Source: Chthonomonadales bacterium
GTDB taxonomy: Bacteria; Armatimonadota; Chthonomonadetes; Chthonomonadales; Chthonomonadaceae
Assembly (NCBI GenBank): GCA_038217285.1
Contig: JBBQPO010000035.1
Location: 1 to 30,718, forward strand
DNA: 30,718 bases
Direction: 5' to 3'
The notes beneath the pieces are model-generated. The model did no database searches. It was not told the DNA's origin and was given only the letters and a program-made list of their open reading frames with translations. A program made the translations under genes and the position numbers. This document shows, one piece after another, positions 10,151 through 15,100 of this stretch (position 1 is its first letter; the number at the start of each line of letters is the position of its first letter).

Positions 10151-10495
10151 TTACAGTGGAAGGTACTGCACCCGATCTGCGTATTCGTGCGCCTCACCTA
10201 CTGTGGCTACCAGTTCCAGATCGTCGATGCAGAGGCTGACCGTGATGTTGTTCTGGTGGGCATAGAGAACGCCAGCGAATGCCGTACCGCTGGACTGGCG
10301 CTTATGGGCTTCTTTCAGCAGGTCGTCGTCATGGGTGAACAGCACCCGCCCAAGTTCGGTCGCGCGATCAAGTACCCTGGGATCGGGTGTGTTGTCGTGC
10401 CCGTCTTCCTGCGCCGTGACGACGTCTACGCCTCGCTGGAGCAGTCCGCGGTGAACGGTCCCGCGAACGTTCTCGTCTAGGTAGAGCCGGATCAT
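10151..10495 (-). CDS. DUF5615-family PIN-like putative toxin
   Basis: RLYLDENV...GVDV...D..VL..A...GRVLFTHDDDL signature. Overlaps the upstream DUF433 gene by 4 nt (ATGA). Confidence 0.9.
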   Translation of the reverse strand: MIRLYLDENVRGTVHRGLLQRGVDVVTAQEDGHDNTPDPRVLDRATELGRVLFTHDDDLLKEAHKRQSSGTAFAGVLYAHQNNITVSLCIDDLELVATVGEAHEYADRVQYLPL

Positions 10496-10821
10496 CGGGC
10501 CGTTGCTTGACGGGCCAGCTGCCGACGCTCCTCAAGTTGCTCGCGGGTTACGTGCCCGGTGGCCTCACTGCGCAACTGCTCGACTTCCTGATGGCGGCGA
10601 GCGATCTCGTCGTCCAGTTCGCTTTTGTGGTCGTAGTAGTAAGAAAGCGCGGCATGTACCTGGGCCAGGGAAAGATGGGGATGTTCGGCGTGGATCTGTG
10701 GGGCAGAGAGCCCGAAGGCAGTCTGATCCAGCACCACCTCGATGACCTTGGTGGTGGTATTGGCGATCCAGGCGCCGCCGCTGCCGTCCACACGGATATG
10801 ACTGGTGGCGATCAGAGGCAT
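10492..10821 (-). CDS. DUF433-family putative antitoxin
   Basis: G.AWIANT..KV..VV.....G.S..QI...HPHLSLAQVHAALSYYYDH motif. ATG 10821 follows a GAGGAGG RBS. Confidence 0.9.
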   Translation of the reverse strand: MPLIATSHIRVDGSGGAWIANTTTKVIEVVLDQTAFGLSAPQIHAEHPHLSLAQVHAALSYYYDHKSELDDEIARRHQEVEQLRSEATGHVTREQLEERRQLARQATAR

Positions 10822-10857
10822 AATTTTACTTCCTCCTCGTGTGCGTAGCATAGTTAC

Positions 10858-10886
10858 AGTGTATCCGATCCCGTGCGGGATTGCAA
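10858..10886 (-). promoter_or_regulatory. Promoter and palindromic operator of the DUF433/DUF5615 TA pair
   Basis: TTGCAA-17 nt-TACACT on the minus strand. Palindrome ATCCCG-TG-CGGGAT (10868-10881) lies mostly in the spacer. Confidence 0.6.
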
Positions 10887-10959
10887 CAGGGTGCGTTGAC
10901 AGCGATTGGATCCCCGCGTTGCTTTCTTCTTGCTATTGAAGCCAAAAAACCCCGCATTG

Positions 10960-11253
10960 TTAGCGCCGGTCGAGGACTTGGCGCAGGTACTGGCCGGTGT
11001 GGCTTTCGGGAATGGCGGCGATCTGCTCCGGGGTGCCAATGGCGACGACTTTGCCGCCGCTGTCTTCGGGACCCATGTCGATCAGCCAGTCGGCGGTCTT
11101 GATGACGTCCAGGTTGTGCTCGATCACCAGGACCGTGTTGCCGGAGGTGACCAGACGATTGAGGACGGCGATCAGCTTCTCGACGTCGGCGAAGTGCAGG
11201 CCGGTGGTCGGCCCATCCAGAACGTAGATCGTGTGGTCTGTGCTGCGATTGGC
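10960..11253 (-). pseudogene. uvrA: Duplicated, decaying 3' fragment of uvrA (97 codons plus stop)
   Basis: Translates to [97 protein letters not shown]. About 90% nt identity to 12104-12403 by hand. In-frame TGA at 11269-11271 and no upstream start. Confidence 0.95.
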
Positions 11254-11701: not shown

Positions 11702-12003
11702 TCCTGAAGCCCAATCTTGCGGTGTTTCTCATCGATCATAGCGGCGATACGTGCCTTTTGCTCATCCACATAGGTTCCGGAATGGCGCTCCATGGCGTCC
11801 GTTTCGGCGAACAGTTGATCTGTCAATGCCCGAAAGCGCGCTTGCTGTGCCTCATTCTTTAGAGTTTCCATCAGCATAACATCCTCCTGATTGACAAAAA
11901 CATGGACTTCGTCGCCAGTCTGTAGACCGAGTGTCTGCGCCTCATCTGGCAGTTCCAACGTCCGACTGTCTTTGACTCTGGCAGTATAGTGAACGATTGC
12001 CAT
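11698..12003 (-). CDS. Putative antitoxin with AbrB/MazE-like N-terminus
   Basis: YTARVKDSRTLELPDEAQTLGLQTGDEVHVFV swapped-hairpin pattern. Translationally coupled to the PIN gene; GGAGGTGAGG RBS before ATG 12003. Confidence 0.8.
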   Translation of the reverse strand: MAIVHYTARVKDSRTLELPDEAQTLGLQTGDEVHVFVNQEDVMLMETLKNEAQQARFRALTDQLFAETDAMERHSGTYVDEQKARIAAMIDEKHRKIGLQE

Positions 12004-12022
12004 CTTCCTCACCTCCGGGTGT

Positions 12023-12049
12023 CACTCTCATCATTATAACATAAGAGTG
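12023..12049 (-). promoter_or_regulatory. Extended -10 promoter and flanking inverted-repeat operator of the vapBC-like pair
   Basis: TGtTATAAT on the minus strand (TATAAT at 12038-12033), bracketed by CACTCTCAT / ATAAGAGTG (8/9 inverted repeat). Confidence 0.65.
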
Positions 12050-12103
12050 TGCGGGGCAAGCATCTCTTTTTTGGAGACTGGAGAGCCGCTTATGGTGGAT
12101 CGC

Positions 12104-15100
12104 CTATCGCTTGCCTAGAACTCTGCGCAGATAGTGGCCGGTGTGGCTTTCGGGATTGGCGGCGACCTGCTCCGGGGTGCCGATGGCGACGACTTTGCCG
12201 CCGCCGTCGCCGCCCTCGGGACCCATGTCAATTAGCCAGTCGGCGGTCTTGATGACGTCCAGGTTGTGCTCGATCACCAGGACCGTGTTGCCGGAGGTGA
12301 CGAGACGATTGAGAACGGCGATCAGCTTCTCGACGTCTGCGAAGTGCAGGCCGGTCGTCGGCTCGTCCAGAATGTAGATCGTGCGGCCTGTGCTGCGCTT
12401 GGCAAGCTCCGACGCGAGTTTGACGCGCTGGGCTTCGCCGCCGGAGAGGGTGGTGGCGGGCTGCCCGAGGCGCAGATAGTCGAGGCCGACATCGTGCAGA
12501 GTCTGGAACTTACGCGCGATATTGGGCATCTGCGAGAAGAACTCGACGGCCTCCGAGACGGTCATGTCGAGAACGTCGGCGATAGATTTGCCCTTGTACT
12601 TCACTTCCAGCGTCTCGCGGTTGTAGCGTTTGCTCTTGCAGACTTCGCAGGGGACGTAGACGTCGGGTAGGAAGTGCATCTCGATCTTGAGAATGCCGTC
12701 GCCCTTGCAGCTTTCGCAGCGTCCGCCCTTGACGTTGAAGGAGAAGCGCCCCGGCTCGTAGCCGCGCACACGAGCGTCCTGGGTCTTGCTGAACAGATCG
12801 CGGATCAGGTCAAAGACGCCGGTGTAGGTCGCCGGGTTGGAGCGCGGGGTGCGGCCTATCGGCGACTGGTCGATGTCGATCACCTTGTCGATATGCTCGA
12901 TGCCGCGCAGCTCGTCGTGCGCGCCCCAGACGGCGTGGGAGCCGTAGATCCGGTGCATCAGCAGCGGAAACAGCGTCTCCTGGATCAGGGTCGATTTGCC
13001 CGAGCCGGAGACGCCCGTGACGGCCACAAACAGCCCGAGCGGAATACTCACGCTGACGTTCTGGAGATTGTGCTGCCGCGCGCCGATCAACTCCAGCGCT
13101 CGCTCTCCCGGCTCGCGTCGCGCTGGAGGCACTTCGATCTGCTTGGTGCCGCTCAGGTACTGCCCGGTGATACTGGCAGGATTGGCTTTGACCTCCGCCG
13201 GTGTGCCCTCGGCCACGACATGGCCGCCGTGCTCGCCCGCCCCCGGCCCGATGTCGATCAGCCAGTCGGCGGCCTCCATCGTCTCCTCATCGTGCTCTAC
13301 GACCAGAATGGTGTTGCCCAGGTCGCGCAGCCGCTCCATCGTGCGGATCAGGCGCGTATTGTCGCGTTGATGCAGGCCGATGCTCGGCTCGTCCAGAATA
13401 TAGAGAACCCCCATGAGGCCGCTGCCGATCTGTGTGGCGAGGCGGATGCGCTGCGCCTCGCCCCCGGCCAGGGTGGCGGCGGCGCGGTTCAGGGTCAGAT
13501 AGTTCAGCCCGACGTTGAGCAGAAAGCCGAGCCGCGACCGGATCTCCTTCACGATCTGGCGGGCGATGATCAGCTCCCGCTCCGTCAGTTGCAGGCTCTC
13601 GAAGAAGCCGAACAGCTTCTCCAACGACATCGCGCAGAGATCCGCGATGTTCTTCGTGCCGACCGTGACCGCGAGCGACTCCTGCTTCAGCCGCTGGCCC
13701 TTGCAGACCGGGCAGGGCCGCTGGCTCTGGTACTGCTCCAGATCCTCCTTGACGTAGGCGCTGTCGGAGTCGCGGTACTTCTCTTCCATCTCGCGCAGGA
13801 CGCCGCCGAACTCGCTGTCGAAGGCGCGTGTGCGCCCCCAGCGGTTGCGGAACTCCACGGTGACATTGCCTTTGATGCCGTACATCAGCGCGTTGAACTG
13901 CATCTCGGACAGCTCTTTTAGGGGCGTCGTGATCTCGAATTCCAGCTTCTTCGCGACCGCCTTGAACTGGCTCTCGCGATGCTCGGTCAGGACTCTCTTG
14001 CCGGTTTTTAGTACATAGTAGCGGATGCCGCCCTCCGCGATACTGAGGTTGCGGTTGGGCACGATCAGGCCGGGATCGAACTCCGTTTTGGTGCCGAGGC
14101 CGTGACACTCCGGGCAGGCACCGTAGGGGGAGTTGAAGGAGAAGAGGCGTGGCTCGATCTCCTCGTAGTTGAAGCCACCGTCCGTCGTGGCATAGTTCTC
14201 GGAGAAGACTATCTCCTGCGCGGCGATGTCGCCTCCCGCCTGCACAGAGACGAGCGCGACGCCTTTCGCGCGCTTCAGCGCCTGCTCCAGCGAATCGGCG
14301 ATGCGCGACCGGTTCATATCCGGCTTCTGAATCAGGCGGTCCATGACGATCTCAATGGTATGCTGTTTGTAGCGTTCCAGATCGGGAATCTGCTCGCTCA
14401 GATCGACCATCTCGCCGTCGATGCGGGCGCGCACGAAGCCCTCCTTCAGAATCTCTTCCAGCTCTTTTCTATACTCGCCCTTGCGTCCGCGCACGATTGG
14501 CGCGAGCACGAGATACCGCGCGCCGTCCGGCAACGCCAGCACCTTATCGACCATCTCTTCGATGCTCTGCTTGATAAGCGGCAGCCCGGTCACCGGGTCG
14601 TGCGGGATGCCGATGCGCGCGTAGAGCAGGCGCAGGTAGTCGTAGATCTCCGTGACCGTTCCCACGGTCGAGCGCGGGTTGCGGCTCGTAGATTTCTGAT
14701 CGATGGAGACGGCGGGGCTCAGCCCGTCGATCTGGTCGACGTCCGGCTTGTCGTGCTGCCCGAGGAACTGACGGGCGTAGGCGGAGAGGCTCTCGACATA
14801 CCGCCGCTGTCCCTCGGCGTAGAGGGTGTCGAAGGCGAGCGACGACTTGCCAGATCCGCTCAGCCCCGTGATGACGACGAGCTTATCGCGGGGAATATCG
14901 ATGTTGACGTTCTTGAGGTTGTTCTGCCGCGCCCCCCGGATACGGATGACGTTGCGATTGGGCAGTTCGCCCATTTTTTCCACGCTGGCCATAATGGTGT
15001 CCAGGCGCTCCTCTTCCTGTACAGCGTCCGCTGCTGGCGCAGACGTCTCCTCGGAACGGGAATCCGCCTTGTGGGCGGTCGGTTTTTTGCTCGTCTGTGT

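Follow-up and report, generated by a model that had tools for sequence, protein, structure and literature searches.

Integron cassette arrays provide the familiar case of small cassettes, many of them toxin-antitoxin (TA) pairs, being stacked at one site. On chromosomes, TA pairs are often found alone between core genes, with no mobility gene. Here we describe a pair made up of a VapC-type toxin and a candidate antitoxin, positioned behind uvrA and followed by a second, damaged copy of the uvrA 3' end, in a stretch of 30,718 nucleotides (the window) from a Chthonomonadales bacterium of the Armatimonadota (GenBank assembly GCA_038217285.1, contig JBBQPO010000035.1), and we argue that this pair likely arrived on foreign DNA, via homology-anchored displacement of the uvrA 3' end and without an integrase. 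One precedent, insertion with long target duplication, was reportedly treated by Nobusato and colleagues in 2000. For restriction-modification genes, such duplications have been described mostly from naturally competent species, and a repeat-based cycle of spread has been hypothesised, its release and infection steps being unproven (Furuta et al., 2010, PMC2853133). In rhs loci, C-terminal displacement has been described, along with a proposed circle that homologous recombination would produce and re-insert (Jackson et al., 2009, PMC2935791). Homology-facilitated illegitimate recombination has been held responsible for the arrays of type VI secretion system (T6SS) and contact-dependent inhibition (CDI) loci (Kirchberger et al., 2017, PMC5361080; PMC6336857), and the T6SS displacement arrays have been compared with integrons (PMC5361080). 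For TA pairs that form islets among the core genes of chromosomes and lack mobile-element genes, spread through homologous recombination has been invoked, and their acquisition has been called poorly characterised (Belot et al., 2026, PMC13617665). Literature searches, judged from listings and the openings of abstracts and with subscription journals thinly covered, turned up no description of TA pairs piled up behind duplicated ends of housekeeping genes, and passages of PMC2654758 and PMC3457768 contribute nothing about TA cargo.

A sequence-only reading of the window had given the minus-strand order as uvrA, an antitoxin gene, VapC, a copy of the uvrA tail, DUF433 and DUF5615, and this is the order that we find, with a 101-aa open reading frame (ORF) in the antitoxin position and a PIN/VapC gene behind it:

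12104..15193, minus strand: uvrA, the intact anchor gene, 1029 aa according to the gene caller (open frame to 15289; NCBIfam equivalog, 1522 bits)
12104..12403, minus strand: uvrA tail in use, the first repeat copy, likely the incoming allele
12004..12103, minus strand: intergenic region leading into the TA pair, in which a short inverted repeat lies at about 12049-12023; a possible but weak promoter/operator
11698..12003, minus strand: candidate antitoxin, 101 aa, sharing 4 nt with the start of the toxin gene; taken as the antitoxin for its position
11294..11701, minus strand: VapC-type PIN toxin, 135 aa (Pfam PIN, E 5e-7), with D5, E43, D98 and D117/D119 kept
11254..11293, minus strand: spacer of 40 bp from the toxin stop to the tail copy, a non-homologous junction bridged by a unitig
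10960..11253, minus strand: displaced uvrA tail (the remnant), 294 bp, without a 5' start codon but with its own stop codon
11084..11151, minus strand: 68-bp core, identical to 12234-12301
10492..10821, minus strand: DUF433 gene, candidate antitoxin of a second pair (Pfam E 1e-7; start from the gene caller)
10151..10495, minus strand: DUF5615 (PIN-like) gene, candidate toxin of the second pair (Pfam E 4.5e-11), with no tail copy after it

The tail copy behind uvrA is real. It is 294 bp long, as had been stated. When 12403-12117 is aligned locally to 11253-10973, 259 positions are identical, 22 are substituted and a single gap of 6 nt is opened (blastn E 1e-109); carried through the stop codons, the alignment has 29 differing columns, close to the approximately 28 substitutions previously counted by hand, and the 68-bp core proved exact. 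The two copies are offset by 1150/1144 bp. In the Logan contigs of X1, the one public run holding the stretch, no RNA run being listed among its holders, unitigs span 10179-11098 and 11183-11985 with 0 mismatches and at depths of 5.6 and 5.1, versus 6.9 for the flank, the break between them falling on the identical core. Both ends of the remnant are thus bridged, while the junction of the uvrA stop with the antitoxin (12046-12179) is without cover; as X1 is probably the source sample, it does not represent independent biology. Other joints met in the unitig search, belonging to uvrA of other organisms, were discarded for their low likeness. The remnant carries an E>G change in Walker B, the 6-nt deletion and five amino-acid changes within its first 14 codons, and in this pair of copies the remnant-only changes mainly affect amino acids, those unique to the tail in use being mainly synonymous.

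Judged by its architecture, a PIN toxin with a small overlapping gene upstream, the pair is a putative type II vapBC: the acidic residues of the toxin occupy invariant columns in the alignment with its relatives, and these relatives are directly preceded by ORFs of a size similar to that of the candidate antitoxin, which itself has no Pfam or NCBIfam match. The hairpin of the leader (z -1.0) is not above shuffled sequences, the leader is absent from the list of the promoter scan, and scanning the window for promoters and terminators produced nothing exceeding shuffles. The earlier statement that no integrase or transposase is nearby stands, as none of the 36 scanned ORFs of the window match one; the five tyrosine-integrase matches in the genome all lie off the window contig, serine recombinases and transposases not having been searched genome-wide. 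The suggestion that an older TA pair had also been captured at uvrA fared less well: no second uvrA remnant is found past DUF433/DUF5615 (blastn with word size 5 and tblastn, 7000-10800), and the window therefore shows one capture, not two. Capture of the DUF433/DUF5615 pair at uvrA is nevertheless plausible; pairs of this type are cargo at lepA and groEL in relatives.

As far as the cited texts describe them, the rhs loci share with this locus an intact gene followed by fragments of variable length of its own conserved part, long direct repeats, and an old end displaced downstream; they differ in that the toxin tip of the anchor protein is swapped in rhs, whereas here the anchor encodes a housekeeping protein, which is restored with hardly any change, and two genes separate from it make up the cargo unit. 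The likeness to the T6SS and CDI arrays lies in the one-sided homology anchor, the non-homologous far end and the integron-like stacking without an integrase, and, as in those arrays, we see 3' copies of variable length separated by foreign DNA. Those arrays, however, are described as confined to effector-immunity loci and as retaining the old immunity genes, while here the anchor is not of the effector type, whole TA pairs are kept, a dead core-gene tail is retained, and several unrelated anchors are used in one genome. With long target duplication, the locus has in common that genes of the addiction type lie between direct repeats, which are long and variable, in the absence of a mobile element; the repeats exceed 30 bp, the inserts are below 20 kb, and an empty site is available, for groEL, in the congener G001. 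In contrast, the cases of PMC2853133 are restriction systems tied to DNA breakage (the word "toxin" is absent from the main text), whereas the cargo of the window is of the PIN type, and our copies, located at coding 3' ends, look like two alleles and not like a duplicated target. The TA-islet model, as published, needs two conserved flanking genes and an initial mobile element, while here there is one anchor and the downstream neighbour varies. Integrons differ from these arrays as well, as no integrase or attC-like site is found here and the separators are gene-tail copies with varying starts. By such comparisons, the mechanism that we propose would not be new in kind, with close precedent in the displacement seen in rhs, T6SS and CDI loci and in long target duplication; what sets the present loci apart would be displacement on housekeeping-gene anchors with TA cargo.

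The same scar, defined as an intact gene, cargo, and then a copy of the gene's 3' end, is met elsewhere in the genome of the window (G000; 6.2 Mb in 459 contigs, 95% complete, 0.9% contaminated, the window being one whole contig). Self-comparison of this genome yields 61 local same-strand repeats, several of which are gene 3' ends behind cargo, according to the gene caller and Pfam, and the prediction that other core genes would show the pattern is upheld by thrS, groEL, lepA and comM/YifB. The cargo is a PIN pair at groEL, a MazF pair at lepA and a ParE-like pair at an ABC permease gene, and further scars are present at an NYN gene, a comF-like gene and, with non-TA cargo, a gene on C81. One stacked example is thrS (L050, G000:C9:20249-26808), behind which a MazF pair is closed off by a 354-bp tail copy, and ABC-3C defence parts (CTD10, MC6) by a second one of 449 bp. 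Another is the comM/YifB array (C438 + C293, L055), with an unannotated two-gene pair and then two vapBC-type pairs, each followed by a tail copy, of 39, 148 and 231 bp at 90, 91 and 83% identity; the join of this array is inferred, the end of C293 overlapping the start of C438 by 91 identical bases. Of 3235 gene tails in the genome, 12 have a downstream repeat, and three of these cases are plain paralogue pairs (C95, C159, C429); the tandem repeats of C159, repeats wholly past the stop codon (L048, L101) and duplicate fetches were left out. Counting repeats of at least 50 bp and at least 85% identity, 7 of 29 toxin loci in G000 are bracketed (6 of 28 without the window's own), whereas the figure for random small ORFs is 3 of 250, two of these three being toxins of the same set.

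In relatives, the uvrA 3' region could be obtained for 49 of 60 genomes, with the stop codon in view in 47. A copy of the uvrA tail lies downstream in eight of these 47 loci (in G017 interrupted by the contig end), the cargo being unlike that of the window each time, in support of the view that uvrA is a recurrent landing site with cassette turnover. As a landing pad for TA pairs, however, uvrA is joined by several other anchors, and TA pairs predominate among the cargo without making up all of it, the range covering PIN, MazF, ParE-like, HNH, DUF433/DUF5615, XisH/XisI, nucleotidyltransferase-HepT with methylases, and ABC-3C parts; methylase cargo occurs in one lepA case. Under a common rule (the first 1.3 kb behind the gene, at least 1 kb in view, the gene inside the locus, G000 excluded), scars are found at 5 of 42 uvrA, 4 of 27 lepA, 5 of 23 comM, 2 of 29 thrS and 1 of 23 groEL loci, compared to none at four genes that carry no scar in G000 (recA 0/30, uvrB 0/27, secA 0/29 and dnaK 0/27; 0/113 in total). 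Scars are present in genomes of 3 to 5 contigs (G015, G019, G025). Conservation of the gene terminus was considered as what makes an anchor hot and was rejected, as by a crude alignment it is high for lepA, groEL and comM and not for uvrA, while the last 60 bp are highly conserved in the cold secA.

The expectation that arrays would grow is likewise supported, by the three layers at comM in G000 and by groEL in G015 (L150:6752-11973), where three tail copies (98, 98 and 94%) separate four small genes and two XisH/XisI pairs, and where XisH/XisI behaves like TA-type cargo. Further stacks are found at lepA in G056 and at comM in G017. In G025 and G005, the position next behind comM is taken by an antitoxin-HNH pair, the antitoxin of which lies after a first remnant in G019 and G017, an order predicted by stacking. 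As to empty sites, past the groEL remnant G000 is again colinear with the DNA behind groEL in G001, and for uvrA the relatives provide only remnant-free loci with other neighbours. Outside the anchor genes, a bracket of repeats of at least 40 bp is found around the toxin in 2 of 10 Armatimonadota, 3 of 13 cyanobacteria and 6 of 51 others among 74 relatives of the window's VapC with sufficient flanking sequence, these brackets not all being confirmed as coding ends.

The boundaries and the divergence of the copies carry much of the argument. The copies start at -113 to -792 in uvrA, -51 to -186 in lepA and -58 to -155 in comM, and such scatter argues against a fixed att site; no junction motif shared among them is apparent by eye. 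Most copies end near the stop codon, several repeats extending past it, and the spacer from the cargo stop to the copy has a median of 25.5 bp (28 cases with a co-oriented cargo gene). Across 32 copy pairs, we count 285 synonymous versus 156 non-synonymous differences, for a ratio pN/pS of 0.18 (below 0.5 in 27 of 32); the synonymous share of 0.65 exceeds the 0.39-0.47 expected from duplication in place followed by decay, a range that depends on transition bias, the pairs not being independent. This excess indicates that the copies had mostly been two working alleles. At third positions (98 compared), the uvrA tail in use differs from the congeners G001, G002 and G003 at 25, 38 and 30, and the remnant at 15, 33 and 23. 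The remnant being nearer, it is suggested to be the resident tail, and at uvrA and lepA alike the displaced copy may be so read; the earlier view of it as the older, more native tail is to this extent sustained, with the qualification that it is possibly a mosaic and the signal suggestive. Damaging changes, defined as changes to a residue seen in no orthologue, are distributed over the remnant quarters as 41/12/12/13, versus 57/58/67/80 for synonymous changes (32 pairs, partly other than those of the pN/pS set), with the excess at the cargo-side end (permutation p 0.0002; 0.002 with three edge codons trimmed). Such damage would be expected if cassettes travel with their stub. The remnants of uvrA in G025 and of lepA in G038 are clear mosaics, all 9 damaging changes of the former falling in the first 42 of 235 codons, and the uvrA remnant of the window may likewise combine an old stub with a fresh tail.

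Capture by 3'-end replacement without an integrase, as originally suggested for this locus, is thus supported by scattered starts, by two-allele divergence and by the lack of integrase or transposase matches among the cargo ORFs scanned. In the scheme that we envision, a fragment containing a uvrA end and a TA pair would pair with the resident uvrA by host recombination, and its far end, lying a few bases past the toxin stop, would be attached within the resident tail by a non-homologous join, as in homology-facilitated illegitimate recombination; the incoming tail would rebuild uvrA, and the resident tail would be pushed downstream. More speculatively, both homology arms of a cassette bracketed in this way would match one conserved gene, enabling its entry into uvrA of any relative, whatever the downstream gene order, by two crossovers (linear DNA) or one (an excised circle), and the product would be a stub in two parts, the one next to the cargo being old and damaged and the farther one stemming from the fresh tail of the recipient. 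Repeated entry at one gene end would then stack cassettes separated by tail copies, the end state being what is seen. We infer the recombination route, the uptake of DNA, the order of layers and any contribution of the toxin to retention. Excision of a circle between the two repeats, and selection by the toxin against its loss, as envisaged in the earlier reading, are hypothetical; rare circles would not show up in contigs. That DNA is taken up is plausible given the competence-type genes, as comEC, dprA, recA, comF-like and comM-like genes are present in G000.

Other explanations of the scars have to be weighed against this one. That the assembly is a chimera of two strains differing behind uvrA is very improbable. 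Such an origin could be suspected from the 459 contigs, from the 68-bp core breaking the unitig graph and from the uncovered junction at the uvrA stop, but it is contradicted by the bridging of both remnant junctions without mismatch at the depth of the flank, by damaging changes in the remnant that would be foreign to the working uvrA of a second strain, and by the recurrence of the same build in near-complete genomes. The ends of protein genes are known as integration sites, and the scars could represent islands or prophages brought by an integrase to an attachment site at a gene end and later pruned down to a TA pair. Some of the cargo does extend to 4-6.5 kb, and a stepwise acquisition by mobile elements followed by streamlining has been proposed for chromosomal TA islets (PMC13617665). 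Yet copy starts at a single gene can lie as much as 680 bp apart, the copy begins shortly past the cargo stop, the scanned cargo ORFs include no integrase or transposase match, and none of the five tyrosine-integrase matches in G000 are on the named scar contigs, so that we consider this origin improbable.

Insertion with long target duplication, in which break repair would insert the cargo and copy the resident tail, leaving two native copies that are identical at first, with later allele exchange adding the synonymous differences, also seems unlikely. It has in its favour a known example of the same end structure, long variable repeats without a mobile element around restriction-modification genes (PMC2853133), as well as copy pairs that are 96-99% alike (G005, G015) and repeats that continue beyond the stop codon. 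The synonymous excess, however, does not agree with both repeats being copies of the recipient's target, barring such later exchange; in addition, no damaging change is found in the distal 190 codons of the G025 uvrA copy, where synonymous ones number dozens, and most of the cargo is of an RNase type, not a DNA-cutting enzyme.

The reading that we prefer, of displacement by an incoming allele, also has evidence to its disadvantage. No donor locus was found among the best 80 of 510 VapC relatives, nor in five close genomes. The best relatives come from Chthonomonadales records, but the closest of them (74% identical) lacks a bracketing repeat, and in none of the 10 Armatimonadota relatives is the pair located behind uvrA. 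Recent transfer across genera finds no support, as cassettes that genera share at one anchor show no greater likeness than the anchor gene itself, and inheritance from long ago, followed by losses, is possible. The differences between the two copies in the window are evenly divided (10.5/10.5, pN/pS 0.34), and their polarity is weak (12 versus 4 third-position columns); for groEL, outgroups favour the tail in use by 4 to 1, and the proximal thrS copy is about equal in identity to congeners. The five positive anchors were picked because G000 bears a scar there, kin are not independent, and the proposal does not account for recA, uvrB, secA and dnaK being cold. The trimmed damage gradient has p 0.048 without the strongest pair (G025 uvrA) and 0.14 without the two strongest, and after trimming 10 pairs lean 5' versus 6; it is therefore a lead and not a result.

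A wider proposal, which we put forward as tentative and would not expect to hold in full, is that of a self-targeting minimal mobile unit, a TA pair between two copies of one housekeeping-gene 3' end, which would be placed by host recombination alone and have its stub renewed at each transfer. Under it, uvrA, lepA, comM, groEL and thrS would, throughout a bacterial order, act as arrays that resemble integrons but need no integrase, and VapC relatives of other phyla would be flanked by the same scar.

The scars, which are met again and again behind a small number of housekeeping genes in this bacterial family, likely mark integrase-free entry and piling-up of TA pairs in chromosomes, and they leave a readable record of entry, consisting of the anchor gene, the position of the far junction and two alleles that can be compared. 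The route to gene gain that they suggest, with one anchor, needs neither a mobile element nor a conserved gene order. As several cargo pairs belong to no family, tail copies may also serve as a marker for new TA or defence cassettes. One candidate for a new TA or defence pair is a two-gene cassette of about 100 aa per gene behind comM in G000 and G019 (L250:870-1496, L259:613-1214), with no Pfam match.

A number of smaller observations were made at these loci. In G025, a 708-bp uvrA tail copy follows 6.5 kb of cargo and is itself followed by a HerA-NurA pair (L035:11033-15340). In G027 (L045:487-1519), a bAvd-like gene and a short ORF directly precede a uvrA tail copy and a vapBC pair; the short ORF resembles the end of a variable protein and has no NCBIfam match, and the two are possibly a piece of a diversity-generating retroelement within the array. 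A mirror-image case is provided by a vapBC pair in G000 (L057:2494-4250, G000:C111), bracketed by a repeat of the 5' part of a gene together with upstream DNA. Within the window, a 105-aa ORF at 8793-9110 contains three 54-bp tandem repeats ending in what we take to be a KGG-like motif and matches nothing in Pfam or NCBIfam; it is kept in four relatives, in G003 on the dnaK contig. At 9789-10085, a 98-aa pentapeptide-repeat ORF, a short frame that may be a fragment, faces the DUF5615 gene. Finally, G000 possesses a second, divergent uvrA-like gene (G000:C102:8583-11465, about 69% DNA identity), as do many relatives, and in G036 such a paralogue has a tail copy of its own together with a vapBC pair.

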